A DNA stretch of 64,000 bases from a virus (IMGVR_UViG_3300025723_001174:5331-69330); one strand, 5' to 3'; positions 2,382 through 39,681 are shown, counted from the stretch's first letter. Program-made: numbers and translations. Notes: generated by a model from the letters alone, not told the origin.

Positions 2382-4421
2382 TTACTTTTCATGAGCTATG
2401 AATTCCCCATTCCAGTTATCTGGTAGGTCTTGTTGTTTCATAAAATCACAACGTTCAATCCATATCTTATAATATTTGTCCATCTGTCCGCCGAAATTAC
2501 CAATTAGTTTCTTACACATAGCGGCCGCTTCGTCAAACTTTTTCTGTTTGTACAAGGCATGCATAGCATTATGTTGTTCTCGGTCTTTAGTATAATCATT
2601 GCCCTTAGTACGCAATGCTGTATAAATCAAATCTGCTACTGTCTTGCCTTTTGGTTGCAGGTTATCTAATAGCAGGTAAAAGAAATCATCTTTAGTACGA
2701 TTGTATGTTTCAGCACCAATAATACATAGTACACCGTAGGCTTTACAACGTGCTTCTAAGCGAGCCGCAGTTGAAACCATATCACCTAAGATGTCATAGC
2801 TGTGTCTTTCTGTTGAACCCATCTCACCAATAAAGCCAATACCACTATTACATCCCCATCCCATAGCCGCAGGAGGCAAACCTTGTGCTTCCATTATCTT
2901 AGTATACTCATCTACCTTGTCTAGCATTTCAAGCCCAACCCTAACAATAGTGCGGGCATGATTGGGATCTTCGATAGGAGCACCATGTATGTGCATTGAC
3001 GCATCGCCTACATACTTGATTATCATACCCTTGTTGTCCATCATAGGTTGACTAATAGCATCCATATAACCGTTCATGTATTTGCCTAAACCAGCAACGT
3101 CATCCCCATAGTGTTCACCGATTGGAGTAAATCCACGCAGGTCACTAAACATAACTGACACATCCTTGCGTACTCCACGCTTGATTAAGTCTGGATCTTG
3201 TTGTAGCATCTGTACAACTTCTTTAGAGCAGTAACCAGCAAACTGTTTTTTAATAGCCTGCTTCTCTAGGAATTCGCTTATAAACTTAACCCCATAAGCA
3301 TGTAACATAACCAGTGTAAGCCCGCCACTAAGAATAGTAGCATCAAAAAGATAAAGATAATGCTGAAAAGCAATTCTGCTACTAAGCAGAGAAATAACAA
3401 TAAAACCAATACCACTAATAAGTCCAACATACGTCCACCTTGTTAAGAATAATAAAGCAATGCCTGCTACTATTAAAGATAAAATTTCAGCGCCATCCGC
3501 CCAATCTGGTCTTTGTATAACAACGCCGTTGACCATAGTGCCTATGACTGATGCAACAGCATCCTGTGGCCATACTGCACCTTTGCTTGTAGGTATTGGA
3601 TTACCGATACCGGCCGCTGTAGTTCCTACTATAACTATAGCACCTCCAAAGTCTTTGGGCAAATCTACTAAACTAACTTGATTGTTTTGCTGACTCCAGT
3701 CAATCCATATCCTACCTAAGCTGTCTGTGCTTATAGCTCCAAACTTAGGGATACGCATTTTCTCAACACCATTTTCGTTAAGTTTGACTTGAAAGGTTGA
3801 ATCGCCGGCCGCAACTCTGAGTGTCTCTAGAGCTATGCTCGGATATAATTTTCCATCGATAGCGGCTATCAATGGTAGTCGACGATTCACCCCGTCTACC
3901 TCTGGGAGTGTGTTAGTTGTTCCAATACCTGCGGCTGGATTTTCTAATGCAGGTACGTTAGCTATCAGTCCGGGATATTGAAGTATTGTGTTTAAGTAAT
4001 TCGATCCTATTACAGCCGATCCTGGAGGTCTCGGAGTGTTTTTTGTTTTCTGTGAAGGAGTATTTGCTAAGACTACAGGGTACTGGCTTAGAGTTTGACC
4101 CAGAGTAGAGTCTCCACCTGAACGGTCTTTCTCTGGCATGAGTATATCAAATACAACAAGCCCTGCTCCCCTCTTATATAGATCTCGTATAATGTTGGCA
4201 TATTCTGCTCTTGGTAATGGCCACTGACCGTACTTGTCTAATGTAGCTTCATCTATATTTACGGTGTATATGTTGTTAGGGGTAGGAGCTTTGGCAGTAA
4301 TAAGAGTATCAAAATATCTTAGTCTTACGCTTTCTACAAAAGATGGATCAGTTATTCTTATACCTAACACTAATGCTAGAGTCAATAATGCTGTCCAAGG
4401 ACTTAATAAGATTTTCTTCAT
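2382..4421 (-). CDS. CHASE2-domain class III adenylate/guanylate cyclase
   Basis: N-terminal TM, CHASE2 (VNIDE..L..YGQWP.PR), three TM helices, cyclase motifs FSDLRGFT, IKYVGDA, GDMVSTAARLE. Confidence 0.92.
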   Translation of the reverse strand: MKKILLSPWTALLTLALVLGIRITDPSFVESVRLRYFDTLITAKAPTPNNIYTVNIDEATLDKYGQWPLPRAEYANIIRDLYKRGAGLVVFDILMPEKDRSGGDSTLGQTLSQYPVVLANTPSQKTKNTPRPPGSAVIGSNYLNTILQYPGLIANVPALENPAAGIGTTNTLPEVDGVNRRLPLIAAIDGKLYPSIALETLRVAAGDSTFQVKLNENGVEKMRIPKFGAISTDSLGRIWIDWSQQNNQVSLVDLPKDFGGAIVIVGTTAAGIGNPIPTSKGAVWPQDAVASVIGTMVNGVVIQRPDWADGAEILSLIVAGIALLFLTRWTYVGLISGIGFIVISLLSSRIAFQHYLYLFDATILSGGLTLVMLHAYGVKFISEFLEKQAIKKQFAGYCSKEVVQMLQQDPDLIKRGVRKDVSVMFSDLRGFTPIGEHYGDDVAGLGKYMNGYMDAISQPMMDNKGMIIKYVGDASMHIHGAPIEDPNHARTIVRVGLEMLDKVDEYTKIMEAQGLPPAAMGWGCNSGIGFIGEMGSTERHSYDILGDMVSTAARLEARCKAYGVLCIIGAETYNRTKDDFFYLLLDNLQPKGKTVADLIYTALRTKGNDYTKDREQHNAMHALYKQKKFDEAAAMCKKLIGNFGGQMDKYYKIWIERCDFMKQQDLPDNWNGEFIAHEK

Positions 4422-4424
4422 TGA

Positions 4425-5177
4425 TTAACCTTTTTTACTTTTCATGTAGTTCTGTATGCTGGCCAAGTAGTCTCCGAATATATTATGTCTTTTGTGTATT
4501 TCTACTTTGGGAGCCATAGAGCCGTTGATAGCTCGAGTTACTGCGGCTGTATCTGAAAAGTCTTTTACTTTAGGAGCAACGTTCTTTTTCCAGAACCATA
4601 CAGCAATCTTAGCGGCTTCTTGTGTATCTGCGGCTAGGTCGGGGTTCTTTACAAAGTGGTTTGGGTCTCCGTAGAGATCTTTACCTGCGTCCATATAGTT
4701 GCCTTTGCCTGTTAACTGTATGAAACCGCGGCCAACATATTTTAGTGCGTCTTTGTTTCCTTCGTTACCAGTTGAGTGTTTGTATTTTGTTGATAATTGC
4801 TTTGGTCGACCTATTTCGCCCATGTGTTTGAATTCTCCAGTTTCTGCAGAACATTGTGCAAGAAACTGTGCTAATTCTGTTTGATTATTAATACCACTTG
4901 TTACAGCCTGCTTCCACAGTATTCTATAAGCAGTATCTGGATCCAGTTGCTTGGTTTGTACTAGGGGTTGTACTTTTGTCGAATGAGGATCTATAGTAGG
5001 CTTTTGTTGCTGATGTTTTACTTGTTGTGAGTGTGCGGCATGTGTTTTAGCCGTATCGTGCTGTTGTGGTGCTTTGGCGTGGGCACCTCCACTGAACGCT
5101 AGACCTGTAGCTAGGGCACCGGCCGCCGCTAGGTCTTTCCATCCTTCTTCTACTTCAATAAATTCGTTTGCTCGCAT
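4425..5177 (-). CDS. glycoside hydrolase family 19 (chitinase-like lysin) with capsid-targeting-like N-terminus
   Basis: LAQFLAQCSAETG, YVGRGFIQLTGKGNY, AVWFW, VTRAING. Confidence 0.88.
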   Translation of the reverse strand: MRANEFIEVEEGWKDLAAAGALATGLAFSGGAHAKAPQQHDTAKTHAAHSQQVKHQQQKPTIDPHSTKVQPLVQTKQLDPDTAYRILWKQAVTSGINNQTELAQFLAQCSAETGEFKHMGEIGRPKQLSTKYKHSTGNEGNKDALKYVGRGFIQLTGKGNYMDAGKDLYGDPNHFVKNPDLAADTQEAAKIAVWFWKKNVAPKVKDFSDTAAVTRAINGSMAPKVEIHKRHNIFGDYLASIQNYMKSKKG

Positions 5178-6823: not shown

Positions 6824-8557
6824 TTAATTCCCTTGTCTGACCGAAATAGTTCCGCATGTTGAATAGCAGGTTTGATTGACGCTATAACTCTGTCCGCCTG
6901 TTTGTGTTAGGTTAACACTTGCTGGTGCACCAGCATTAGTCAATGCGATTGTAGCAGAGTTAGCAGTCGATCCGCTTTGATTTACTGTAGCACTATTTCC
7001 ATCACCCGTAGTCGAAACGCTAACATAGTGTGCGCCAGTTCCTGACTGTGTGGTTTGTATAGTGTTGTTGTTACCATTTGCACTTATAAATGCCTGCTTC
7101 TGTGTATTGTTGTTTTGACTTACGTTAATATTGTTATAGTTTCCAGTAACATCAATTTCAGCAAAGTGTCCTTGTAGTCCACCATCGTTAGTTTGGCTGG
7201 CATTTACAGTATTGCTGAACCCGCTGACATTTACTTTTTGATAGTTGTCACCAGCACTGATGCCATTGGGATCGCTGGCTTGAACTAGATAAAGATTGTT
7301 ACTGCCTCCAGTTACACTCATATCGATTTCATTCTTACCTATGTTTCCGTTACCCTGTTTAATGCTGATGTAATTATTGCCGTCTTGCACTTTGGCAAAC
7401 TGCTGATTAACACCGCCAATTAAATTGTGTGCGCCAATTTGATTGATGCTGATAACATCGTGATTACCGCTTTGCTGTATATAGATACCACTACCGTTGA
7501 TAGGATTACTGTTAAATGCGTTAACATCATTTTGTTGTTGTGTTGTAATGCCCCCGCCCGATCCTGTGATAGTTGTACTGATTAGCGTAGCAGATCCGTT
7601 ATTAGCAGTAGTTGTACTACCATCACTCCATGTCGTAATAGTTACGGGTTGACTATATGTGTAGGTAGTAGATCCAGATATTGTAGTTGTAATAATAGTT
7701 GAACTGCTAGTTCCGGTTACTGTTGGCGCTAACGAAGTATCGCTATATGTATAACTCTTACCACTTTGCGGCGATATTGCATTGCCGTTGTTATCAGTTA
7801 GGTAAATGTAGAAGTAACCATTACCGTTATCAACAACACTAGCGACCCTACCATACATAATTTGTCCACTATCACAATTAGAACAATGCCAGTATGCTCC
7901 TGATTTTATTTGTTGTACAGTACTATAATCTGAACTATTGCCTTGATATACAAATGCATAAGCACTGCCGCCGCCTGCTACATTCATTTCAGTACCTGTT
8001 GTATAATGCACTACAGGAGGAGGAGCGGCAGGTGTTACAGTTTGCCCTGGTGCTAAAGGAGTCGTACTTCCATTAGTTGCGTATGCATTAACTTGTGCCA
8101 CAGTTGGATTTAGTGTACCAGTCCAAGTAACTCCGCTTGTGTTAGAAAAGCCACTGGTCATACTAAACAACTGTCCAGTGTTATTATCATTTCCTACGAA
8201 GAAAAAATAGTTTGCTCCCATATTGATAATATGTCCAGTACCCATTACTGCTTTTTGTGTGCCATTACTAGTGTATTCTATTGCTTTCCACGGATTAGTT
8301 GTATCACCGGTTGCAACAAAGGAAATATAATCTCCAGCAGACCATTGTACTTGTCCACTGGTCCAAGGAATCTTATAAGCAGTTCCTGGATTCTTTGAAT
8401 AAATTTGACAAGTGGATGAATACATACACGCACTTACATTCCACTGACTATCGGCAACTTGATATTGTCCAAACTTTAAATCAGCCAATCCAGATGCTTG
8501 GCTAAATGCACTAACGCATATAGACACAAGAAATAAGAATTGTATCAGACGTTTCAT
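6824..8557 (-). CDS. secreted protein with N-terminal passenger domain and C-terminal curlin-like (Q-x-G-x-x-N) repeats
   Basis: Signal peptide; C-terminal repeats such as IYIQQSGNHDVISINQIG, NTIQTTQSGTG, NSATVNQSGS; inside the csg cluster. Confidence 0.75.
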   Translation of the reverse strand: MKRLIQFLFLVSICVSAFSQASGLADLKFGQYQVADSQWNVSACMYSSTCQIYSKNPGTAYKIPWTSGQVQWSAGDYISFVATGDTTNPWKAIEYTSNGTQKAVMGTGHIINMGANYFFFVGNDNNTGQLFSMTSGFSNTSGVTWTGTLNPTVAQVNAYATNGSTTPLAPGQTVTPAAPPPVVHYTTGTEMNVAGGGSAYAFVYQGNSSDYSTVQQIKSGAYWHCSNCDSGQIMYGRVASVVDNGNGYFYIYLTDNNGNAISPQSGKSYTYSDTSLAPTVTGTSSSTIITTTISGSTTYTYSQPVTITTWSDGSTTTANNGSATLISTTITGSGGGITTQQQNDVNAFNSNPINGSGIYIQQSGNHDVISINQIGAHNLIGGVNQQFAKVQDGNNYISIKQGNGNIGKNEIDMSVTGGSNNLYLVQASDPNGISAGDNYQKVNVSGFSNTVNASQTNDGGLQGHFAEIDVTGNYNNINVSQNNNTQKQAFISANGNNNTIQTTQSGTGAHYVSVSTTGDGNSATVNQSGSTANSATIALTNAGAPASVNLTQTGGQSYSVNQTCYSTCGTISVRQGN

Positions 8558-9696
8558 TAGTTTTGTTTGGTAATAATAATCGTATTACCACCTGCGTTAA
8601 TTCTATTTTTAATATTCACACCATCTGACTGCATGATATATGTTGTTGTATTTTGATCCTTAGGAGCAGTTATACAAGTAACATTACTGCTACCATCAGT
8701 GCGACATAGGCTTACTGTAATAGGTGTGATTTCTTTTGTAACTTGGCTGGCCTTAAACCAATCAGGTAATAATTGTGATTCTGGACTTAACATATTTCCT
8801 AATAGCATCGCAGACTCTTGTGCTAATTGTTGACTTAAAATATTAAAAATATCTTCTAAGAAATATTGTTGTAGCAATGGTTTTTCTAAAGGATCATTCC
8901 ATACCGGCCCTTCTTTATCAAAGGCATTCTGCAAAAAGTTTTGTTGTAGATAATTTACGGCCAGCATGTCTCCGACTTGTGTTACTCTGGTCATGCTATC
9001 AACCTTTTTTTCTTTAGACAATTCTGAAGGGGGACTAACGATTAACAAATTGTTGATAGTGTCCAATGTTAGTTTTAAAACAGTAGGCTTCATAGGAGCC
9101 ACTCCGCGACTTTCTACTTTAGTGCCTTGGAATGGTTTATCTAAGAGTACTTCTCCTGCATCGTTGCTTACAGATATTTTTCCTGTCACACATTCTGTTT
9201 CAACATCACGTATTATTTTGTTCGATGGACAGCTAGGCAATAGAATGATAGTACTTGCGCCTGCATCGTCTACTGTTGCAGTAAAGTCAGTTCCACGAAC
9301 ACCAATAGTTGCACTAGGTGTATTGATTGCTACTTTAGAGGGATCGTTGTGTGCGATTGCACCAGATGCATACTTGACTGTACCACTGGCAAATTTCATC
9401 GCCAGCTTACCGCCTTTACTTGATTTGGGATCGTAAACAAAGTCGTCAATAACTAACTTTGAGTTTTCGTTTATTTCTACTTTTGTATCGTCAGCAAATG
9501 TAATACCTACTTTGCCTTTTGTAGTGTTGATAGCATCTGCCATTTCAACACCTGTTCCCTTAACTCCGGGAAGCGATTTGTTTGATCGAACTATAGAACC
9601 AGGGATAGCGGTTTGCTCGGTTATCGTTCCTATGCCTGCGAAAGCATTAACTGATAAACCGAGCAAAATTGTAAAAGCTACCTTGCATACGTTCAC
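8557..9696 (-). CDS. FecR-domain secreted/periplasmic protein
   Basis: Signal peptide; ITFADDTKVEINENSKLVID and INTPSATIGVRGTDF FecR signatures. Confidence 0.85.
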   Translation of the reverse strand: MNVCKVAFTILLGLSVNAFAGIGTITEQTAIPGSIVRSNKSLPGVKGTGVEMADAINTTKGKVGITFADDTKVEINENSKLVIDDFVYDPKSSKGGKLAMKFASGTVKYASGAIAHNDPSKVAINTPSATIGVRGTDFTATVDDAGASTIILLPSCPSNKIIRDVETECVTGKISVSNDAGEVLLDKPFQGTKVESRGVAPMKPTVLKLTLDTINNLLIVSPPSELSKEKKVDSMTRVTQVGDMLAVNYLQQNFLQNAFDKEGPVWNDPLEKPLLQQYFLEDIFNILSQQLAQESAMLLGNMLSPESQLLPDWFKASQVTKEITPITVSLCRTDGSSNVTCITAPKDQNTTTYIMQSDGVNIKNRINAGGNTIIITKQN

Positions 9697-9712
9697 ATCC
9701 GTACCTTATATA

Positions 9713-10597
9713 TTAGTGTGCGTTACTGTGAATATTAAAAGTATTGCTGTTACCTGTACTTTGAACATTCACTGTAGTATTACCAGCACTTGCATTTTGC
9801 ACAATAGTGGCATTATTATTAGAGCCGTTCAATGCTAAAATTGTTGAATCAGAATAGCCAGCACTTGTCTGTAGTATGCTTACTGTATTGCTTGCACCGG
9901 CAACAGTTACGTTGACGCTACTGTTATTGGCTGTAAGAACAGATGTTGCACCACTAATATTCAAAGCAGTATCAGTTAACCCAGTCCCAGCGATACCTTG
10001 GTTAACAGTAACAGTATTACTACTTCCACCTGTTACAGAGATATTCTGTGAGTTACCAGCGCCATTAACTGCTGAATATACAGCATTAGTATTACCACCT
10101 GCGGTTGTAGCAGTTATAGCATTATTTGTACCTAGTACATTAACATCAGCGATGTTTGTGTTACCAGTTTGTGTAATGCTTACATAGTTACTTTCACTAC
10201 GACCTTGACCGTTATTATTACTATCGATAGTACCTACGTTGTTATTACCTGTTACGGTATATAAAAATGTATTACCATTTTGCAAAGGCGTACCATTTGC
10301 AATAGCTGTAGCAATACCAAAATTTAATGTATTGCCTGTACCAACTTGATCTACGGTAACTGTATTGCTGTTACCATTGATTGTACTTGGTGTAGTGTTA
10401 CCACTACCAGTTCCTTGTATGCCGCGCATAACGTTACCTGCACCATCTTGTGTAACTGTTATTGCAGAGTTATCACCAGACTGGTTGATATAGATACTGT
10501 TATCTGCCGCATAGCCCAATGATGTCATTCCAGACAACATCAGAATTGTAAGTAATTTTCTCGACAACTTACCAACGCCTGTCATTTCGTAATTCAT
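9713..10597 (-). CDS. curlin-like subunit (CsgA/CsgB-like repeats)
   Basis: Signal peptide ending GYA; NSIYINQSGDNSAITVTQDGAGN and further S-x-Q-x-G-x-x-N repeats; N/G/T/Q rich. Confidence 0.8.
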   Translation of the reverse strand: MNYEMTGVGKLSRKLLTILMLSGMTSLGYAADNSIYINQSGDNSAITVTQDGAGNVMRGIQGTGSGNTTPSTINGNSNTVTVDQVGTGNTLNFGIATAIANGTPLQNGNTFLYTVTGNNNVGTIDSNNNGQGRSESNYVSITQTGNTNIADVNVLGTNNAITATTAGGNTNAVYSAVNGAGNSQNISVTGGSSNTVTVNQGIAGTGLTDTALNISGATSVLTANNSSVNVTVAGASNTVSILQTSAGYSDSTILALNGSNNNATIVQNASAGNTTVNVQSTGNSNTFNIHSNAH

Positions 10598-10677
10598 TTT
10601 TGTATCAAAGTTGACTTATTTTATTCGTCTACTTCATCCTTGGGCATAGCCCGTTAGTGTTTATTCTTTACTACCTC

Positions 10678-11796
10678 TTATTCACTTAAATTAATAATCT
10701 GGACATACCCCTTATGTCCATTACTGTCATCAGCAAATACCCAGCCATTCTCCTTGGGAACAGTTGTCAATTTTGTCCCCGCTGGTAATTGCCAACGCTT
10801 CTGTGCATCCTCGTTTGGTTTCGCATACAAATAGGAAAGTTTGTTTAGAACTTTCTTATCTTCCGGAAATGGTGTAACTTTATTTTTTTCTACTACTGGA
10901 GGAGCTACGCCTTCTCTTGCCGCAACGTCTTCCGGAACTTTAACTTCAGCTTTTTTCTCTGGTTCAATAACTAATGGAGCCTCTGGTTCTTTTACGACTA
11001 CAGGAGTAGGTGCTGGTCTAAAATCCCAAACGCCACGCTCACGGCCATCCTTAATTAAAGCAACCACAGCGGCTTCAACAGTTGCTTTAACTGCCAATGT
11101 ACCCGGCTCGTTAATAGTCAATCCTGTTTCAGCTTCAAAAGCCTGTGTGCCATCACGGAAGAATTTCAACATAGCAAAACTATCTGCGGTACTATAAACT
11201 GTTTTTGTTACTGTTACAGTTGCTAATACCTTACCTGTGTTTACGCTAACAGCTCGTAAACTAATAGTAACGATATCCTTGCTATATTGAGTCTGTGGAC
11301 CAATGCCTAACCAACGGTATGCGGCACCGCCACTCTCGCTTGAACTATCATATCCGATGATACCACCTTCAATAATGATACCAGCGAACTGTAAAGGTGC
11401 TAACTGTTTAGCGTTAGGGCCTTCATACATGTCACGCATCTGTTTGATAATAGTACGTTCTTTTATCAAATTATCTACGTTAACACGTTCTACAACATCA
11501 AACCATTGACCGTGGCCGACGTCTTGCAAAGCACTGATCAAGAAAGGTTCAGCACCTTGAGTAACTGCTGTTGAAAAACTTGCATATGATGAAACTGATT
11601 TACGTTGTCCTGTTTGATCTTTGAAACTGTAAACTGCTACAGTAACACGTGGTCCATTAGGCAATGGAACAGTATCAAACTCTTTTTGCATCTTGTGAGA
11701 TTCTACTTCTGGCTTATACTCTACACCCATTTTTTGTGTAACTGCACAACCGCTCATCAAAGTAACAACGGCTAACAATAATAATAACTTCTTCAT
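10678..11796 (-). CDS. csgG: curli secretion channel CsgG lipoprotein with C-terminal SH3-like domain
   Basis: Lipobox LMSGC; VAVYSFKDQTGQRK, FSTAVTQGA, WFDVVER..DNLIKER.II, EGGIIGYD. Confidence 0.92.
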   Translation of the reverse strand: MKKLLLLLAVVTLMSGCAVTQKMGVEYKPEVESHKMQKEFDTVPLPNGPRVTVAVYSFKDQTGQRKSVSSYASFSTAVTQGAEPFLISALQDVGHGQWFDVVERVNVDNLIKERTIIKQMRDMYEGPNAKQLAPLQFAGIIIEGGIIGYDSSSESGGAAYRWLGIGPQTQYSKDIVTISLRAVSVNTGKVLATVTVTKTVYSTADSFAMLKFFRDGTQAFEAETGLTINEPGTLAVKATVEAAVVALIKDGRERGVWDFRPAPTPVVVKEPEAPLVIEPEKKAEVKVPEDVAAREGVAPPVVEKNKVTPFPEDKKVLNKLSYLYAKPNEDAQKRWQLPAGTKLTTVPKENGWVFADDSNGHKGYVQIINLSE

Positions 11797-11806
11797 AGTT
11801 GTTTCC

Positions 11807-12274
11807 TTAGTGTGGGGTCATATTAAATGACCCAGTTGGAATAGTAACATTACTTGTTCCGCTAGGTTGTGTAACTTGCATTACAATGTTTGTTCCGCTC
11901 CACCACCAGCTAATAGCAGTAGTAGGATCGAATTGGAATGTACATGCTACATTGCTTGTACAGTTGCTACTATTTGTTGAACTAAACATTGTAGTGGCCG
12001 CATTTTGACTTATCTGTGCATAAATGCGAGATTCTAAGTTTGTTAAAAATTGGTTGATCGGTGTATTAGCCGCATTAGAAGCGGCTTGTTGAGCGGCCGC
12101 TTGTATTGCTTGATTAATCGCTTGTTGACGAGTAAATTGCTCGTTCTCGATAGTTAGAACGTATGTACCATACCCGTTACCGTTGAATGCTGGACTTTTA
12201 AAGGTAAAGTCGTTTAGTGGTGCCGCAAAGGCACCCGTAGATAATAGTGTTAATAATAGTAGTACTTTACGCAA
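11807..12274 (-). CDS. csgF: curli assembly protein CsgF
   Basis: TTG start with SD AGGAG; signal peptide; FTFKSPAFNGNG...LTIEN and QFLTNLESRIYAQ; directly upstream of csgG. Confidence 0.8.
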   Translation of the reverse strand: MRKVLLLLTLLSTGAFAAPLNDFTFKSPAFNGNGYGTYVLTIENEQFTRQQAINQAIQAAAQQAASNAANTPINQFLTNLESRIYAQISQNAATTMFSSTNSSNCTSNVACTFQFDPTTAISWWWSGTNIVMQVTQPSGTSNVTIPTGSFNMTPH

Positions 12275-12342
12275 GATTCGCTCCTAGACCAGTAGTGTAA
12301 TACTATTTACTAGTATGTAGACGAAAATTCAGTTAGTAGTTA

Positions 12343-13647
12343 TTAATGAGATGTTGTAACTAGTTTAATGCCAGGATAGGCATTCTGTGCTGTTGTAGTA
12401 ACAGGATAGGCATTGTTCATATGGAATCTTAAACCGCCTTTCTTTAGGCCATCTAAGTCTTTAAAGAAAGTAAAGGTTGCACCACCTTTAGATTTTAAAT
12501 CAATAAACAAAATTCCTACTTCTTCTGTTTTTACTGCGAGGTAATTGAAAACGTTTGCACGAGCATAAGTTTGCAACAGAAGATTTCGATCTTTTGACAT
12601 GAAAGCTGTTAGCGAACTAGTAACTAGATCCGGCACATGAGGAAATAGTTCATTGAACATTACTTCCAATTCTTTTAACATAGTGCGTTTAGAATCATCA
12701 TCTGGCATAACTGAATATAGATATAATAAACTATCCATATTGATACCAGATATGCTTACTCCTATACCAGCCGCTCTTCCTTCTTGTATCTGTGCGCCTG
12801 TAGGTACTATATTAGGAGTAGCCTGTATTTGATTATTGGCCGGAACTGTACCATTTGCTGGAGGTGCTCCCATAGGTTCTCCAGGTAAGTTATTGGTTTG
12901 AGGATTTTGTATATTCTTAGCCGCTTTAGGTTTAGCTTTTTTAACTTCAGGTTGCGGAGCGCCTTTGAAATAATCTTTATATTTTTTAATAAAATCTTCT
13001 GCATTTTTAGTGTATGTAGATGTTGGTTTTACGTTTCTATCTGTAAACCTAGCAGGACTGCTATTGTTAGTTTTAATTTCTACCTTGCCAAAATTATCTA
13101 TTTCGATATCGCCCTTGCCACCTGCGCCAGCTTTAATAAATGGGCTCATGACTTTAAGCATGAATTCCCCTTTACCTTTACCTTGACTATCTACTTGGAT
13201 TAAGGTATCTGCTAGTTCGGTAATGGCTGGATTCTTTCCGTAGAGTTTTACTACATCTGACATACTATGACTTCCAGATGTAAGTGCATCTAGATTGATC
13301 AGGCCGCCACCTTCTTCATGATCTTTCCAAAGCGTCAACATCTGTTTCTTAGATTCAATTGGAGCTTTCATTGCCATGATATAACCAGCTAGCATTTTAG
13401 AAGCTTTTTTTACATCTATATCATAGAACGAGTTGAATTCTTTTTCTGCCGCATCCTTTCTGTGACTTCCAGTATAAGCGTGAGTGATAATATCCTCAAT
13501 CTCATCTAGTTCATTTTTAGTCTGTTCACTAGGGGGTAGGTCCTTTATCTTGTTAGTAATGTTTAATTTAAGGCTGTATAAAGGATCTGAAGCAGGATCG
13601 CCGGGTGTGGCAGTTAATTTTTCAGAAAGGAATTCTAATGCTCGCAT
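12343..13647 (-). CDS. hypothetical virion/internal protein with capsid-targeting-like N-terminus (MRALEFLSE)
   Basis: 434-aa ORF, TAAATA 7 nt upstream, no SD. Confidence 0.8.
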   Translation of the reverse strand: MRALEFLSEKLTATPGDPASDPLYSLKLNITNKIKDLPPSEQTKNELDEIEDIITHAYTGSHRKDAAEKEFNSFYDIDVKKASKMLAGYIMAMKAPIESKKQMLTLWKDHEEGGGLINLDALTSGSHSMSDVVKLYGKNPAITELADTLIQVDSQGKGKGEFMLKVMSPFIKAGAGGKGDIEIDNFGKVEIKTNNSSPARFTDRNVKPTSTYTKNAEDFIKKYKDYFKGAPQPEVKKAKPKAAKNIQNPQTNNLPGEPMGAPPANGTVPANNQIQATPNIVPTGAQIQEGRAAGIGVSISGINMDSLLYLYSVMPDDDSKRTMLKELEVMFNELFPHVPDLVTSSLTAFMSKDRNLLLQTYARANVFNYLAVKTEEVGILFIDLKSKGGATFTFFKDLDGLKKGGLRFHMNNAYPVTTTAQNAYPGIKLVTTSH

Positions 13648-13657
13648 AGTACAATAT

Positions 13658-14323
13658 TTAGCTTATTTCTGGAAACAGCTTATTCTGTACATAGTCATTA
13701 GCTTCTTGTTCTGTAAAGCCTAGATGCTGTAGGCTAGCGGGTGTGCGGGGGTTTTGCTTCTGATAATGACAATAACGATTCTGCGCCATATGATAATCAG
13801 CAAGACTTTGCTGATCTATGCCTACGTTGTTTAGGTAAAAATCAAGCGTTTCTAATCCTAGTTTAATGAATTTATCTAGTTCTTCTTCCCCTACAGCACC
13901 AATAGCTACCATAGCCGGACTAAAGATCTGTTTGCCCCAATCGGGCAATTCTCTAGGTTTATTCCATTCTTCCGTGGCGACCTTGGCATTAAACCATAGC
14001 CACATAGGGCTGGTAGGATCTCCACTGATACTAAAATCATGGAAAGCTCCGCTTACTTTTGTTGGGCCGCAAACAATATCAAAACCGTAAATAGGGCTAG
14101 GATCATTAGTGTGGGGAAACACAGTAACGTGTAATAGATAAAGTTTTTTAGTTTCTCTCGCATCTATAGTACTAATATGAGCCCTGCGATAGCGCAACGA
14201 GCTATATTCTTTATCAGCTAAAATTTCTGTTCTATAAACTTTTCCCAATGCTCCGGTGTTTGAAAACCTTGAGTTAATAGCTTCAGAACAGTCAATTACT
14301 CTATCAAACAAATTTTGAGTCAT
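13658..14323 (-). CDS. pcyX: ferredoxin-dependent bilin reductase (PcyA/PcyX-like)
   Basis: RRAHISTID, LLHVTVFP..DPSPIYGFDIV, GAFHDFS, RELPDWG..IFS, QN.YC..QKQNP.T; adjacent to heme oxygenase. Confidence 0.8.
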   Translation of the reverse strand: MTQNLFDRVIDCSEAINSRFSNTGALGKVYRTEILADKEYSSLRYRRAHISTIDARETKKLYLLHVTVFPHTNDPSPIYGFDIVCGPTKVSGAFHDFSISGDPTSPMWLWFNAKVATEEWNKPRELPDWGKQIFSPAMVAIGAVGEEELDKFIKLGLETLDFYLNNVGIDQQSLADYHMAQNRYCHYQKQNPRTPASLQHLGFTEQEANDYVQNKLFPEIS

Positions 14324-14840
14324 ATGTTTCCATTAGTCGGATAGCCCATAAAAAAGCCATATTAGCTTCCTCTCCCATAGAATCATCTAACTTGGCACGG
14401 ATCTTGGCCTTGAGTCCATCTACGTCTTCGAACTCTAAATTACGATGCGGGCCAGGCAATATCTTTTTAATCATTTGCCCACCGAATAAATCGCCCATAT
14501 GCCATACGTACAAGTGCGCTAGTATACGGGTTGGTTCATCAACTAGTGTTAACAAATAACGAACATATTCTGCTGTAACAGGGCTCATGCGTACAGTACT
14601 CATGTCCCCGATGATTTCCTGTGCATCTAGGTATAACTGCACACTACGCTCAACTTCTAACACATCTAAGGTTAGTTTATTGTAACGGCATACGTTTTCG
14701 ATAGTGTTGTATATTGCACTCTTTTGGAATGTATAGTCACCCCAAATTTCTAAAGGCATGTTCTTCTTAAACACAGCCTTCATAAATTTAGTTGATTCTG
14801 CTTTTTGGTGATTGTCCCAAGTTAATTCTTTCAAGCTCAT
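14304..14840 (-). CDS. hemO: heme oxygenase
   Basis: LKELTWDNHQKAE (proximal His), AHLYVWHMGDLFGGQMI, EANMAF. Confidence 0.9.
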   Translation of the reverse strand: MSLKELTWDNHQKAESTKFMKAVFKKNMPLEIWGDYTFQKSAIYNTIENVCRYNKLTLDVLEVERSVQLYLDAQEIIGDMSTVRMSPVTAEYVRYLLTLVDEPTRILAHLYVWHMGDLFGGQMIKKILPGPHRNLEFEDVDGLKAKIRAKLDDSMGEEANMAFLWAIRLMETYDSKFV

Positions 14841-15768: not shown

Positions 15769-17667
15769 TTATTTTACTTCTTCAAATTCTGCATCAACCA
15801 CATTTTCATCCTTTTTATCGGATGCTTGTGCGGTATCTGTTTGAGCCGGTTGCTGTGCGGCAACTTCGGTTTGGATATCACTCAGGCAAACACTAATGCT
15901 TCCTGCTTGGCTAACCATCTCGTCTTTGTCATTCCCAGCAAGGGCTTTTTCTGCGTAAGCTGTAACTTCAGTAATCTTGTCCTTGAGTTTCTGACTTAGT
16001 TTGTCATCATTCTCTTTTACCTGTTTCTTAAGTTCGTGTACGCTATTTTCTAGAGTGTTACGTGCTTGGATCACTTCGAGTTGAGCTTTATCTGCTTCTG
16101 CATTAGCTTCAGCATCTGCAACCATCTTTTCAATCTCTGCTTCGCTCAAACCGCTATCTGATTTAATAGTGATCTTCTTCTCTTTATTAGTTTTCTTATC
16201 CTTAGCAGAAACATGCATGATACCATTGGCATCGATGTCAATCGTAACTTCGACTTGTGGTACACCGCGTGGTGCTGGATCAATACCTTCTAGGTTGAAT
16301 TCACCTAAAAGTTTATTGTGTTGTACGAGATCACGTTCTCCTTGGAATACTTTAATAGTAACGGCAGGTTGGTTATCTTCGGCTGTACTAAACACTTGCG
16401 AATGCTTTGTAGGAATAGTTGAATTCTTTTTAATCAACTTGGTCATTACACCGCCCATTGTTTCGATACCCAATGATAATGGAGTAACGTCTAACAATAG
16501 AACGTCTGTACGTCCACCGCTTAGAACTTGTCCTTGGATAGCGGCACCAACTGCTACTGCTTCATCTGGGTTGACGTCTTTACGTGGAGCCTTACCAAAG
16601 AACTTTTCTACAGTTGCTTGTACCAATGGCATACGAGTCATACCACCAACTAGAATGATTTCATCGATGTCGCTTGGCGATGTTTGTGCATCCAATAAAC
16701 ATTGCTTAACTGGTTCCATAGAGTTGTCAATTAGCTCAGTAACTAATTGTTCTAACTTAGCACGTGTTAACTTGATGTTCATGTGCTTAGGACCACCGGC
16801 ATCTGCTGTAATGTATGGTAAGTTAATATCAGTTTGCTGACTGCTTGATAATTCAATCTTGGCTTTTTCAGCTGACTCTTTCAAACGCTGTAATGCCAAC
16901 ACATCTTTAGTTAGATCAACACCGTTGTCTTTCTTAAACTCGCCAACTAGGTAATCCATAATGCGTTGGTCAAAGTCTTCACCGCCTAGGAATGTATCAC
17001 CGTTAGTAGCAAGTACTTCGATTTGTGTGTCGCCATCTACACTTGCGATTTCAATGATGGAGATATCAAATGTACCACCACCTAAGTCATATACCGCAAC
17101 TTTGCGATCTTTCTTATCTGCTTTGTCAACACCGTATGCTAGTGCGGCCGCTGTTGGCTCGTTGATAATACGTAGGACTTCTAAGCCTGCAATCTTACCT
17201 GCGTCCTTAGTTGCTTGACGTTGCTGATCATTAAAGTAAGCAGGTACTGTAATAACAGCCTGTGTTACTTCTTCTCCCAAATAGTCTTCGGCAGTTTTCT
17301 TCATCTTGCGTAGAACTTCTGCTGAAATTTGTGGAGGTGCTAATTTTTCATCGTTAGCTTCAATCCAAGCATCACCGTTGTCTGCCTCAACAATTTTGTA
17401 AGGCATTAGGTTAATGTCTTTTTGGACTTCTTTTTCTTTAAATTTACGACCGATCAAACGCTTGGCCGCATAAATGGTGTTCTTGGCGTTTGTTACTGCT
17501 TGTCGTTTTGCTGTTGCACCTACTAGGATTTCGTCCTTTGTGTATGCAATGATTGATGGTGTTGTACGTGTGCCTTCGCTATTTTCAATAACTTTAGCAG
17601 TTGTGCCTTCTATAATGGCCACGCAACTATTTGTTGTACCTAAATCGATACCGATAACTTTACTCAT
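15769..17667 (-). CDS. dnaK: molecular chaperone DnaK (Hsp70)
   Basis: [41 protein letters not shown]-terminal [10 protein letters not shown]. Start at 17667 with SD AGGAG. Confidence 0.97.
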
Positions 17668-17746
17668 TGTAATCTCCTTTATTAAGCGAGTATATATTTG
17701 GCTCATGCCCTTGTAGAACCCTTACGGCGCTCTACAATTTTATTTA
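17668..17746 (-). promoter_or_regulatory. ROSE-like RNA thermometer in dnaK leader plus TAAATA promoter
   Basis: TAAATA (17741-17746), hairpin TGTAGAGCGCC-GTAA-GGGTTCTACA, then CTCGCT-TAATAA-AGGAG. Confidence 0.6.
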
Positions 17747-32609: not shown

Positions 32610-32636
32610 AAAAGAAAAGCACCCGAAGATGCTTTC
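32610..32636 (-). terminator. intrinsic terminator after tmRNA
   Basis: AAAGCATC-TTCG-GGTGCTTT + TCTTTT. Confidence 0.75.
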
Positions 32637-32644
32637 TGCTATTT

Positions 32645-32967
32645 TGGATGACAAGGTATAACTACCTCGCAAGAGCGGTTTCTTAGGCCGCTAATTCGAA
32701 CGCGAAGTCGTTGCTAGCAACTTCTTCTACGCTGAAAGTCTTGAATTCAAATGTGTTTGCATTTGTATAATTTGCTTGATTTACAGTCATCGCCTACTGT
32801 GTTGCCGTCTCTACTATCTCGCCACGTCGAAGCCAATACAGGCCCATCAAAAGTGTACCAGCCTGGCCAGCTTTCGTATCGAATACTATACGATACACTT
32901 TTGGTGGACCTGCCGGGAGTCGAACCCGGGTCCGCAACGCCTTCGCTTTGAAGGAATTACAACAATA
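32645..32967 (-). ncRNA. ssrA: circularly permuted (two-piece) tmRNA; tag ANTFEFKTFSVEEVASNDFAFELAA*
   Basis: Acceptor piece ...GGACCCGGGTTCGACTCCCGGCAGGTCCACCA (3' end 32902) precedes coding piece starting GGGCCTGTATTGGCTTCGAC (32845). Acceptor stem GGGCCTG/CAGGTCC has G3-U. Tag frame 32760-32683 ends LAA. Outer ends approximate. Confidence 0.9.
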
Positions 32968-32973
32968 ACTTTA

Positions 32974-33002
32974 ATTATACTATCTTTTGACGAGCCCGTC
33001 AA
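32974..33002 (-). promoter_or_regulatory. sigma70 promoter TTGACG-17-TATAAT for tmRNA
   Basis: Direct reading; -35 lies in an inverted repeat TTGACG-GGCT-CGTCAA. Confidence 0.8.
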
Positions 33003-33066
33003 GACCTACTCTCGCCTAATAATAATCTGGAATTGCTATGCAACTACGCTTAACGGATAATATTAT

Positions 33067-36213: not shown

Positions 36214-37314
36214 TTATAACTCCGGTAATTCATCATAACTAACACTATCGCTCATTACCCCAATGACGTAGTTAGTAGATTCGTTTTCTTGTAATGCTGT
36301 TTGTTTCTTGTTGATATTTACGTGTTTGTTAAACCATGGGATTGGACTCTGGCGAGGATGTTCTTCTAGGTACTTGATACCAATTTCTTTTAATCTAGTA
36401 AACGCTGTATAATCTACGAAATCTTTTAGGATCTGTGCATTAAGTCCAATAACAACACCCTTGCTGAATAGATAGTCTGCCCATGCTTTTTCTTCATGTA
36501 TAACATCTAAGTACATTTGATATACTTCTTGTTCGCAATCAATCTTAGCCTGTGCAAAACGTTCATCTTCTTTAACAACTTGCATAATTAGGAAAGCTGT
36601 CCATTCTGCATGTAAGATTTCATCTTGTAGGATCAAGCTGATAATATTACCATTACCAATATATATCTTATTTTCTACCATGGCTAAACTTGTAGCAAAG
36701 CTAACCATAAAGCGGAACGCTTCTAGTGCATAGCTAGCATTTAGAGCTAACCAAATAGCTTTGACATGTTCTGCTTCATTAATATCGCCGTCCATTTCTT
36801 TCTGGCAGTTGATTCTGTGTAGTTGTTCGTAGTACCTGCCGATATTTGCGGCCATATCTACGATTTCTTTAGTATCGTGTATCTTGTTGAATTCTTCTTT
36901 AGGTACACCGTAGACGTTGCGAATAATGTGCGAGTAAGATTTTGAGTGAATATTTGTTTCAAAGAAACTCCAATTACTGACCAATGCTTCAAGTTCTGGA
37001 ATCGATATAACTGGGCTGAAAACCTGTGATGGTGCACGACCTTGAATACTGTCTAGTGCTGTTTGACGCAATAGATTACTAGTAAAAATATGTTTAACAG
37101 CATCAGATGCTTCTTTATGATCAATTTTATCTTTGGTTAAACTAATTTCTTCCGGTACCCAAAAGAAACCACGTGCTGTTTCTTCATACTTGGCAATCTT
37201 AGGATATTTTACTTCTTCGAATCGTTGGACTGTAACTGGACCTTCTGGATCCAGAAACATCTTTCTTTTGAGGTAATTAGTCTGACGACTAATGTCGTAT
37301 TGTGCTTTGCTCAT
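36214..37314 (-). CDS. nrdB: ribonucleotide reductase class Ia beta subunit
   Basis: FWVPEEI, NLLRQTALDSIQGR, FETNIHSKSY, LEAFRF..SFA, QDE.LH. Confidence 0.95.
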   Translation of the reverse strand: MSKAQYDISRQTNYLKRKMFLDPEGPVTVQRFEEVKYPKIAKYEETARGFFWVPEEISLTKDKIDHKEASDAVKHIFTSNLLRQTALDSIQGRAPSQVFSPVISIPELEALVSNWSFFETNIHSKSYSHIIRNVYGVPKEEFNKIHDTKEIVDMAANIGRYYEQLHRINCQKEMDGDINEAEHVKAIWLALNASYALEAFRFMVSFATSLAMVENKIYIGNGNIISLILQDEILHAEWTAFLIMQVVKEDERFAQAKIDCEQEVYQMYLDVIHEEKAWADYLFSKGVVIGLNAQILKDFVDYTAFTRLKEIGIKYLEEHPRQSPIPWFNKHVNINKKQTALQENESTNYVIGVMSDSVSYDELPEL

Positions 37315-37323
37315 GTTAACCTT

Positions 37324-39681
37324 TTATAATTTACAACTTTCACAATCGTCATCTAATGCTTCGTAAAGCACAGCGTTGTCTGCGGTGATAATACCAGTAG
37401 CATGACCGTTCACACCAATTGTATTAGTGCTGGTTCCAGCCATTGATGCTTTCGCACCAACTTTGTTGATTAGACTATAGTATATAGTCTTGATGCCCCA
37501 CTTGTAGGCTAACATTAGATTCTTAGCAATCAATGTTCCAGGAACTTTACCTTCTGCAAAATGCGCAGGATTATAAAATGTGTTAGTTGATAGACTTTGA
37601 TCAATATAAGCCGCAAGTACAGCCGCGGTTTTCAAATAACCATCACAGTCTTTTTGATCCCACATTAGTTGGTAACGATTTTTTAGACGTTTGTATTCTG
37701 GTACTACCTGTACGAACGATCCTGCTTTTGATTCCTTAACAGAAATCATTTCCATTGGCATTTCAATACCGTTGGTAGAATTTAAAACAACAGAACTAGA
37801 TTCAACTGGTGCTACAGCCATAAGTGTAGCATTTCTAATTCCATATTGCAACATATTTTTGCGTAGACTTTCCCAATCCATACTTGGAGTAAAATCAGTT
37901 AATTCATTTACTCCAGCATTTCTACGTTCCCAGGGAAATACGCCTTTACCATAATAAGTGTATTGACTACGTCCGCATGGGCCCTTCTCTTGGGCAAGCT
38001 CTACACTCATTTCAGTTAGGAAATATGCCTGATGTTCCATCCAGCGTTTGACTTCGGCCAGGGCGTCAGTTTCGCCGTATTTCAAACTACGTTTAGCATG
38101 CCAGTAAGCTAGGTTAGTAATACCAACGCCTAATGGTTCAAAATCTTCATTAGCAAGTTTACTTTGAATACTTAGGAAATCTTGATAGCTCAGCAAGTTA
38201 CTTAAACTACGAACTAGTACACGGCATGCTTTACGCATCTGTTGTGGGTTGTTGAACGCTCCCCAATTTATGCTTCCAAGTGTACATAGGGCAATACGTC
38301 CGTTAGGGTCTTCAATTCTTTGAAAAGGTCGTGTAGGCAATAGTATTTCTTGACACAAGTTGCTTTGATATATCGGATCGGTCTTTGTATCGAACGGACC
38401 TTGATTGATGACGTTGTCGATATTGACAAGGTAAATTCTTCCTGTATCTGTACGTTCTTTTAAAATACCGTTCTTGAAGATATCCTCTGCTGATACAACT
38501 TTCTTTTTAATTGTTGGATGCTTCTCGTAATTTAGATATAACTTTTCAAATTCTGCAGAGTCGCGATAGTATGCTTGGTATAAGTCTGGAACTTCTGCGG
38601 GATTAAACAAAGTAATGTTTTCGCCTTTACGATAGCGATTCCAAAACATCTTATTGACTACGATACTGTAATCCATTTGACGAACACGAACTTCCTCAGT
38701 ACCTTGATTATTTTTCAATACGATAAAGTCTTCAAACTGCGCATGCCAAACAGGTAGTGTAACTGTGCATGATGCATTTCGGATACCACCTTGCGAGCAT
38801 GATCTTAAATCAGCGAACCACTTCTTTAGAAATGGGATTAGACCAGTGTGTTTTATTTCTCCATTCCTAATAGGGGCGCCTAAAGGACGTATACGACCAA
38901 TCTCTAATCCAATGCCAGCACGTTTACTAGCGTACTTGGCCATCATCTCGCCGGCGGCGAAGATTGAATCTAATGTGTCGTCACTACTAATAAGAACACA
39001 CGAACTAAATTGTTTAGTAGGTGTGCCAAGACCGGCCAACACAGGAGTAGCAAGAGTAAAGTGACCATCACTCGCACATTCGTAGTATTCTTTGACATAT
39101 TTTAACCTCTTATCTGCGGGCTCATTATGAAATGCTGTCGCGGCCGCAATAGCATAACGTATCTGCGGTGTTTCATAAATTTGACCAGTGGCACGATTCT
39201 GTACCAAATACTTTTCAGCCAACTGGGCGATAGCCGCGTAAGTATATTCTTCGTCCTTGGCATGATCGATAAACAAATCGATAATGTTCCATTCATCCTC
39301 GGTATACCACTCTAGAAGTTCTGGAGTGTACATGTTTAGTTCTACATTCTTTTTAACTATGTCGTATAGTTTTGGTGGAGTATATGTTCCATATACTTCC
39401 TTGCGTAGCATCGATACCTTCTGGCGTCCTGCTACGTATTGATAATTTACATTGTTGATTTCTGGATTTTCTTCTTCGTCGATTAAATCTACCATCGCTT
39501 TTAATAGTAGTTCGTCAATCGTTTCTGTCGTCATTCCATCGTGTAATTCTATTTGAGCCTTGATCTCAATCATTGACGGGCTTACCCCATCTACTCCCTT
39601 GCATCCAAATGCAACTTGTCTTTGTATTTTTGCTATGTCTAGAGGCACTCTTTCGCCACTACGCTTGACAACTGTGATCAT
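37324..39681 (-). CDS. nrdA: ribonucleotide reductase class Ia alpha subunit with ATP cone
   Basis: MITVVKRSG ATP cone, QFSSC, SNLCQEI, APVESSS, DQSLSTN, TIYY, C-terminal CESCKL. Confidence 0.96.
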   Translation of the reverse strand: MITVVKRSGERVPLDIAKIQRQVAFGCKGVDGVSPSMIEIKAQIELHDGMTTETIDELLLKAMVDLIDEEENPEINNVNYQYVAGRQKVSMLRKEVYGTYTPPKLYDIVKKNVELNMYTPELLEWYTEDEWNIIDLFIDHAKDEEYTYAAIAQLAEKYLVQNRATGQIYETPQIRYAIAAATAFHNEPADKRLKYVKEYYECASDGHFTLATPVLAGLGTPTKQFSSCVLISSDDTLDSIFAAGEMMAKYASKRAGIGLEIGRIRPLGAPIRNGEIKHTGLIPFLKKWFADLRSCSQGGIRNASCTVTLPVWHAQFEDFIVLKNNQGTEEVRVRQMDYSIVVNKMFWNRYRKGENITLFNPAEVPDLYQAYYRDSAEFEKLYLNYEKHPTIKKKVVSAEDIFKNGILKERTDTGRIYLVNIDNVINQGPFDTKTDPIYQSNLCQEILLPTRPFQRIEDPNGRIALCTLGSINWGAFNNPQQMRKACRVLVRSLSNLLSYQDFLSIQSKLANEDFEPLGVGITNLAYWHAKRSLKYGETDALAEVKRWMEHQAYFLTEMSVELAQEKGPCGRSQYTYYGKGVFPWERRNAGVNELTDFTPSMDWESLRKNMLQYGIRNATLMAVAPVESSSVVLNSTNGIEMPMEMISVKESKAGSFVQVVPEYKRLKNRYQLMWDQKDCDGYLKTAAVLAAYIDQSLSTNTFYNPAHFAEGKVPGTLIAKNLMLAYKWGIKTIYYSLINKVGAKASMAGTSTNTIGVNGHATGIITADNAVLYEALDDDCESCKL

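Follow-up and report, generated by a model that had tools for sequence, protein, structure and literature searches.

Viral type VIII secretion (curli) genes, complete with two curlin-type subunits, in a stretch of uncultivated viral DNA

Can a phage bring a curli system of its own into the cell that it infects? The question is raised by positions 6824-12274 of a 64,000-nucleotide stretch of viral DNA (IMGVR_UViG_3300025723_001174:5331-69330; hereafter the window), which lies within a 69-kb IMG/VR record with a CheckV completeness estimate of 20%. Five uninterrupted, closely spaced and co-oriented open reading frames (ORFs) on the minus strand encode CsgF, CsgG, a curlin-repeat protein (cur1), a FecR-domain protein and a second curlin-repeat protein (cur2), and a preliminary description of the sequence had taken them for an apparently self-sufficient phage amyloid system. 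In this work, we conclude that the block holds, complete and intact, the viral type VIII secretion system (T8SS, curli) region known from phages of SAR11 and OM43, and that both of its repeat proteins are curlin-type subunits. Export of fibres with an adhesive role is the explanation that we prefer, with a probability of about 0.6; the homology of pore and subunits and the fold were computed, and secretion and polymerisation are what we infer from them.

The gene list of the preliminary description was borne out by ORFs and Pfam matches at these positions (Table 1), CsgG and CsgF scoring over their cut-offs and Curlin_rpt at the cut-off in cur1 and just under it in cur2; NCBIfam returned matches to CsgG, CsgA and CsgB, all below threshold. 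What the list had omitted is a gene for a CHASE2-domain class III cyclase further downstream, which is part of the conserved block. The export signals claimed for all five products were likewise seen when read straight from the translations: CsgF, cur1, the FecR protein and cur2 have N-termini of the Sec type, in which a basic stretch precedes a hydrophobic core and cleavage would fall at a small-x-small site, and the csgG product carries the lipobox L-M-S-G-C, whose Cys17 is unchanged across 22 relatives.

Because the single-sequence Curlin_rpt scores were marginal, family alignments were built from related loci for cur1 (A1) and cur2 (A3). In cur1, curlin-type repeats begin at the first mature residue behind the Sec signal, and in cur2 they make up the C-terminal ~240 residues (residues 336-577, DNA 6827-7552), where Cys564 and Cys568 are invariant. 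With the cur1 profile, the E-value was 6.4e-24 for the solved CsgA of Pontibacter korlensis (8c50) and 4.8e-4 for the fibril of E. coli CsgA (8enq); the cur2 profile matched 8c50 with 4.3e-8. The AlphaFold2 model of cur1 (predicted local distance difference test score, pLDDT, of 76) is a stack of ~nine strand-turn-strand units. In exhaustive VIA-align fold searches of 48,161 chains, the top match of this model was 8c50_A (Z 22.1 over 219 residues, root-mean-square deviation (rmsd) 8.7, 26% identity), with the second at Z 16.7; a Foldseek search of the same model against the PDB gave no match at E <= 0.001. The cur2 model, which is confident solely for residues 350-577, also had 8c50_A as its top match (Z 19.5, 199 residues, rmsd 8.6). 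Across both subunits the identity to 8c50 is 24-26%, and the high rmsd values (8.6-8.7) arise because the modelled solenoid differs in twist or length. The best structural and sequence match of both subunits is thus a many-repeat curlin, although a cellular protein of the Bacteroidota and one that has no N-terminal passenger. By hhalign, cur1 and the C-terminal domain of cur2 are related with a probability of 98.7% (E 4.6e-16), which at the sequence level identifies them as paralogues. Since profile matches, solenoid models and paralogy agree, cur1 and cur2 are curlin-type subunits, and the two curlin-repeat proteins of the preliminary description stand, now with a modelled solenoid fold.

As regards the pore, residues 2-260 of CsgG match the structures of E. 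coli CsgG (3x2r) with an E-value of 6e-46. The protein consists of a lipoprotein signal, the core (residues 1-260), a linker rich in Pro, Glu and Lys and a C-terminal SH3-like domain at about residues 322-371 (residues 261-372 correspond to DNA ~10681-11016). In this tail SH3_4 and SH3_3 scored 20-21 bits, under their cut-offs; PF06347 and PF08239 are among the precomputed assignments of close CsgG relatives, and the SH3-like extension is present in 10 of the 45 related loci described below. Behind the Sec signal of CsgF follows D-F-x-F-K-S-P-x-F-x-G-x-G-Y; in an alignment of 23 relatives, the D, F-K-S-P, F, G and G-Y positions of this motif do not vary. The hhalign comparison with CsgF of E. 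coli K-12 extends over 107 columns with an E-value of 1e-3 and a probability of just 21%. This weak alignment pairs the N-terminal motif with E. coli F-Q-F-R-N-P-N-F-G-G-N, the part of that protein which inserts into the CsgG barrel, and also pairs a C-terminal V-T-D...T-x-I-x-V segment; E. coli CsgF was not recovered when PDB sequences were searched with phmmer and with the CsgF profile. In comparison with the curli of E. coli and Salmonella (csgBAC, csgDEFG), the window shares the CsgG channel, the N-terminal plug motif of CsgF and the curlin-repeat subunits, but it is without CsgE, CsgC and CsgD, two constriction residues of CsgG (Y51 and N55) are replaced, its subunits have ~9-10 repeats instead of 5 with no separate N22-type leader visible on cur1, and FecR and a cyclase are added.

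The novelty implied by the preliminary description does not hold. A megablast search of the block against 50,697 phage records gave no match; only protein-level searches of phage records brought up the block, in Pelagibacter phage HTVC008M and in four Melnitz isolates, where its genes are annotated as csgF, csgG, curlin-associated or curlin-repeat, FecR-domain, second curlin-repeat and adenylate cyclase genes. Each window protein has a counterpart in these phages at 28-47% identity (tblastn): 43-47% for CsgG, 31-34% for CsgF, 41-42% for the FecR protein, 28-33% for the C-terminus of cur2 and 39-41% for the cyclase, which in both phages follows directly after cur2. The order csgF-csgG-curlin-FecR-curlin with a CHASE2-type cyclase downstream is identical in HTVC008M (KC465899, 7562-13807) and Melnitz (MZ577097, 50731-56876), and podophages of the HTVC023P type also carry the region (PMC9599517, PMC7029224, PMC9004378). 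The operon was reported early in phages, with "sibling capture" and also import as proposed roles (PMC7029224), and in the Methylophilales phage Melnitz it was judged incomplete and a pore for lysis timing was proposed (PMC9004378). Both of these early reports describe phage csgF and csgG as lacking cargo, in line with the preliminary description, by which such pairs usually come without clear curlin cargo; this view is not supported, genes for CsgA/B-type fibres, FecR and adenylate cyclase having then been identified in myo- and podo-pelagiphages (PMC9599517). There the viral T8SS region was described as complete, as expressed in metatranscriptomes and as alphaproteobacterial in origin; aggregation ("sibling capture"), a shield against superinfection and pore-mediated import were proposed as its roles, and the ecological ideas of the preliminary description repeat these published ones.

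The pelagiphage and window blocks have in common that they are without CsgE, CsgC and CsgD, and their carriers share a T4-like background, a phage transfer-messenger RNA (tmRNA) and late-type promoters. They differ in that the genomes of the window lineage reach 230-329 kb, as against ~140 kb in pelagiphages, that the tmRNA is of the betaproteobacterial type, that the window has the SH3-like tail of CsgG and a long N-terminal passenger in cur2, and that four genes, one of them of family GH19, separate its cur2 from the cyclase. The podophage form has a histidine kinase upstream, and none lies upstream of the window block. Here csgF is preceded by a 434-amino-acid (aa) ORF and then by genes for a bilin reductase and a heme oxygenase; since neither Pfam nor PHROG gave a match for the 434-aa ORF, and a single weak counterpart of it exists in the related loci (L022, 24%), it is placed outside the conserved block. 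A TAAATA motif of its own stands 13 nucleotides (nt) before its start. The heme oxygenase gene (57.8 bits) overlaps that of the ferredoxin-dependent bilin reductase (68.3 bits), and many related loci, as well as short contigs of metagenome-assembled genomes (MAGs), have this pair ahead of csgF too. Literature searches on this block in jumbo phages retrieved nothing specific, and a paper on freshwater bS21 phages with 331-kb genomes does not mention curli. What is newly described here, as far as these searches show, is the occurrence of the block in a T4-like lineage of 230-329 kb, the SH3-like tail of CsgG, the modular heads of cur2 and a cellular counterpart.

The survey of related large phages that the preliminary description had suggested shows how well the block is kept. 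A scan of viral contigs found 45 related IMG/VR loci with CsgG 53-89% identical to that of the window, on contigs of up to 329 kb. A T4-type Gp23 capsid gene is present in each of the four related records that were searched. These measure 329 kb (terminal repeats, completeness 100%), 328 kb, 235 kb (completeness 100%) and 230 kb, and three of them are at least 92% complete by CheckV; the carrier lineage is T4-like, with genomes of 230-329 kb. Counting only loci where the contig leaves space for the gene in question, CsgF is present in 44/44, cur1 in 35/35 and FecR in 29/29, cur2 was detected in 16/27, and gene order is identical in all 33 loci that could be compared in this way. About half of the loci fetched have the cyclase gene further downstream. 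Many alignment columns are invariant, which, as far as sequences can tell, argues for selection on function.

In a maximum likelihood tree of 64 CsgG sequences, the window protein falls in a separate clade of 21 sampled IMG/VR sequences (support 100/100), and pelagimyophage CsgG forms a separate clade (99/84) that includes some short MAG contigs. Both viral clades join a single cellular sequence, from Henriciella, at 99/88, and the 34 other alphaproteobacterial CsgGs fall outside this grouping; a sister relation of the two viral clades has a support of only 51/13. The cellular sequence belongs to a Henriciella sp. MAG (Hyphomonadaceae), where a 396-kb contig (L051:6336-12359) contains csgF, csgG, a gene for a 504-aa repeat protein, FecR and a CHASE2 cyclase between ordinary metabolic genes (FAA hydrolase and ALO oxidase). 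This cassette has the same gene order as the window, with FecR and cyclase adjacent, but it is cellular, encodes one repeat protein instead of two, and its CsgG sits on a long branch. As it already holds both FecR and the cyclase, these two genes appear, on the basis of one MAG with a long-branched sequence, to belong to a cellular cassette captured whole by phages and would not be viral additions. Five further contigs of 4.7-10 kb with a phage-type block (L050, L053, L054, L057 and L074) are binned into MAGs of Pirellulales, Rhodobacteraceae, Polynucleobacter and Flavobacteriaceae; because their CsgG groups with HTVC008M and Melnitz, they are probably phage fragments that were mis-binned. Genes for heme oxygenase and bilin reductase lie upstream of the block in L050 and L054.

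The part of the block that varies is the head of cur2. From its N-terminus, cur2 consists of the Sec signal, a module that we call N1 (Table 1), a Pro linker, a middle part with a Thr/Ser-rich stretch up to about residue 335, and the curlin domain, so that a non-curlin passenger of ~310 residues precedes the repeats. This passenger had no Pfam match, no ESM Atlas lead and no match among PDB sequences, and its AlphaFold2 model is of low confidence. Among cur2 orthologues the curlin domain is conserved, and the part preceding it ranges from 0 to ~600 residues and is unalignable. A PA14 domain is found in the heads of two orthologues (L045 and L038, 52 and 30 bits; cut-off 24), and a database search with residues 22-335 retrieved many metagenomic proteins of 363-750 aa that share N1 at 76-86% identity and differ in their middle parts, among which are F5/8-type-C (discoidin) domains (P0131 and P0184). 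In N1-sharing proteins compared by BLASTP (N1 76-84% identical), the curlin domains are just 29-43% identical to that of the window, and those of three such proteins were nearest, among the related loci tested, to HTVC008M. Because N1 is so much more similar than the curlin parts that follow it, these sequences suggest that head modules are exchanged between phage lineages. Whether cur2 is on this account a natural "display" curlin, in which a polymerisation domain carries exchangeable binding heads, we regard as a tentative proposal that is rather doubtful as it stands.

The FecR domain comprises residues 56-149 of an exported protein of 379 aa. Its C-terminal half is conserved and no family could be assigned to it; in the corresponding family alignment (A5) the mean column identity is 58%. 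The C-terminus of the protein (...T-I-I-I-T-K-Q-N) was tried as a curlin half-repeat that would dock to the fibre and was rejected, the hhalign probabilities against the two curlin profiles being just 14% and 4%. The FecR gene and the cyclase gene are 4.1 kb apart in the window, and in several relatives (e.g. L006 and L008) they lie no more than ~0.6 kb from each other, with no cur2 detected in between. Operons with a FecR-domain protein and a CHASE2 sensor are known biofilm regulators of Burkholderia and Pseudomonas (PMC5192318). The "BiofilmReg" operon of Burkholderia and P. aeruginosa resembles the window in that an exported FecR-domain (COG4254) protein is encoded with a CHASE2 membrane sensor, but it differs in its output, a histidine kinase with a response regulator where the window has a cyclase, in the LysM domain of its FecR protein and in the lack of a linked secretion pore (PMC5192318). 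The GH19 gene (chitinase class I, lysozyme-like) between cur2 and the cyclase encodes an N-terminal hydrophobic segment and has a TAAATA 10 nt before its start; its product is a possible endolysin.

A TAAATA motif does stand ahead of the block, although one position away from the coordinates given in the preliminary description (12303-12308; see Table 1). In the window the motif is biased towards the minus strand (31 copies, as against 10 on the plus strand) and occurs within 60 nt upstream of 16 of the 58 minus-strand gene starts, where ~1.5 would be expected; judged by this distribution, its occurrence exceeds chance and it behaves like a genuine phage promoter element. Within the five-gene block only csgF is preceded by it, and none was found ahead of csgG, cur1, FecR or cur2. 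A scan of the block interior gave no noteworthy intrinsic terminator or sigma-70 signal. The complete sequence TATAAATA was found ahead of the genes starting at 6752 and 14840.

Taken together, these observations can be arranged into a model of fibre export with adhesion. A single late-type promoter would transcribe the genes from csgF through cur2, and their signal sequences would direct all five products to Sec. CsgG would be lipidated and form a channel in the outer membrane, inside which the N-terminal peptide of CsgF would dock as suggested by homology to E. coli, and the SH3-like tail would probably tie the pore to peptidoglycan. Unfolded cur1 and cur2 could then pass the channel and stack as curlin-type beta-solenoid fibres on the infected cell, cur2 supplying a non-curlin head. 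The fibres would most likely be adhesive, because the cur2 heads of relatives contain PA14 or discoidin carbohydrate-binding domains. The FecR protein and the CHASE2 cyclase, to go by gene association, are probably a periplasmic sensor pair that would convert the state of envelope or fibre into cyclic AMP (cAMP). Aggregation of host cells, sticking to particles and exclusion of competitors are candidate benefits to the phage.

Several points weigh against this model. First, (i) the analysis draws on sequences and models only, so that secretion, polymerisation and adhesion are predictions, and (ii) the single-sequence Curlin_rpt scores are marginal, as said above. In the pore, (iii) Y51 and N55 of the E. 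coli CsgG constriction are replaced by V and S next to a one-residue insertion, and only F56 is kept, and (iv) a passenger of ~310 residues, four of them cysteines, would need to be threaded unfolded through a channel of ~1 nm. Besides, (v) neither CsgE nor CsgC (PF10627, PF10610) was found in the window record or in the four related records, three of which are 92-100% complete, in a search that did find the E. coli control; gating and the control of premature polymerisation are for this reason unexplained. In addition, (vi) the cyclase is not adjacent to cur2 in the window, (vii) no protein binding cyclic nucleotide monophosphates was found in the window record and the four related records searched, and (viii) no clumping was seen in Melnitz-infected cultures by Buchholz et al. 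(PMC9004378). With respect to the fifth point, alphaproteobacterial-type and published viral systems also lack CsgE and CsgC/CsgH (PMC9599517), so that their absence does not exclude a T8SS of that subtype.

A different account sees in the block mainly a sensor that spans the envelope: the pore, together with a short curlin structure as surface antenna, would report to FecR, FecR would relay to the CHASE2 cyclase, and the decisive output would be cAMP, which would reprogramme the host, and not fibres. The presence of FecR in every related locus with room for it, that of the cyclase in about half of those fetched, the repetition of the FecR-cyclase pairing in the Henriciella cassette and the existence of bacterial operons of a FecR-domain protein and a CHASE2 kinase (PMC5192318) all lend themselves to such a role. 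We nevertheless consider it unlikely, as two large conserved curlin solenoids, one of them with swappable heads, exceed the needs of an antenna, the phage records searched yielded no cAMP receptor, and the cyclase is displaced in the window and optional in the published podophages (PMC9599517).

Somewhat less likely again is that only the pore matters. An ungated CsgG-CsgF complex would then permeabilise the outer membrane late in infection, for lysis timing as published for Melnitz (PMC9004378) or for the uptake of solutes (as import in PMC7029224 and PMC9599517), and the repeat proteins would be accessory or vestigial. The missing CsgE, the late-type promoter and the lysozyme-like GH19 gene, which lies 1.6 kb downstream of cur2 behind a TAAATA of its own, would suit this use of the pore. 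However, conservation of cur1 and FecR is as strict as that of the pore itself, and variants commonly lacking cur1 were not seen in the 45 loci; cur1 retains the full curlin fold in its model, and CsgF retains a motif that narrows the pore and does not open it. Vestigial genes, moreover, would not remain intact across a divergence of CsgG down to 53% identity.

That the repeat proteins are virion fibres or decoration, the outcome which the preliminary description had named as speaking against itself, or that bacterial DNA was mis-assembled into a viral contig, is close to refuted: beta-solenoids are common in tail spikes, many of which appear lower in the fold lists, and the nearest cellular relatives of CsgG are Alphaproteobacteria, but the best fold and sequence matches are curli subunits, well above the tail spikes, all five proteins have export signals whereas virions assemble in the cytoplasm, the flanking genes are phage-typical, late-type motifs are present, GC content is even throughout the window, and the block recurs in 45 viral contigs, including the 329-kb record that has terminal repeats and encodes a T4-type capsid protein.

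The surroundings of the block contain cargo typical of large phages, namely a full-length DnaK, whose full-length matches among bacterial DnaK proteins reach 67% identity, and the subunits of a class Ia ribonucleotide reductase. The window also encodes a permuted two-piece tmRNA, for which ARAGORN predicts a tag of 25 residues. Its beta-type sequence may hint at a betaproteobacterial host; it is taken as a hint only, since the case of Melnitz demonstrates that host class and phage tmRNA type can differ (PMC9004378).

Table 1. Positions of the curli block and of other features in the window (strand, size and supporting matches).
Feature	Position	Strand	Details
csgF	11807-12274	-	155 aa; TTG start, AGGAG 7 nt upstream; Pfam CsgF 29.9 bits (cut-off 25.8)
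csgG	10678-11796	-	372 aa; Pfam CsgG 154 bits, E 4.6e-45
cur1	9713-10597	-	294 aa; Curlin_rpt 20.7 bits, exactly at cut-off
FecR-domain protein	8557-9696	-	379 aa; GTG start; Pfam FecR 43.1 bits
cur2	6824-8557	-	577 aa; Curlin_rpt 19.5 bits, slightly under cut-off
cur2 module N1	8033-8494	-	residues 22-175; two cysteines invariant in relatives
CHASE2 + class III adenylate/guanylate cyclase	2382-4421	-	679 aa; CHASE2 137 bits, Guanylate_cyc 52 bits
TAAATA, T4-type late-promoter-like motif	12304-12309	-	35 nt before the csgF TTG start; putative promoter
GH19 gene	4425-5177	-	
434-aa ORF	12343-13647	-	directly upstream of csgF
Heme oxygenase and bilin reductase	13658-14840	-	one gene upstream of the block
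DnaK	15769-17706	-	
Class Ia ribonucleotide reductase subunits	36214-39681	-	
Permuted two-piece tmRNA	32613-33016	-	Rfam beta_tmRNA 125.6 bits (gathering 84), tmRNA_permuted 133 bits

The system itself has already been described, and its function is deduced here as it was in the published cases. To judge from its sequence, the block would equip infected cells with a surface structure not encoded by the known hosts (SAR11, OM43) of the published carriers, and it is very common in metagenomes, where 4,992 of the 8,000 candidates scored are CsgG relatives at E <= 1e-10. The second T4-like lineage and the cellular counterpart indicate that all six genes travel together as a unit between bacteria and phages of unrelated lineages. 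The modular heads of cur2 provide a concrete, testable handle on the published idea of aggregation. If cur2 were indeed a display curlin, infected cells would grow amyloid fibres with a programmable, glycan-specific stickiness, and the FecR-CHASE2 pair may report the state of fibre or envelope as cAMP.

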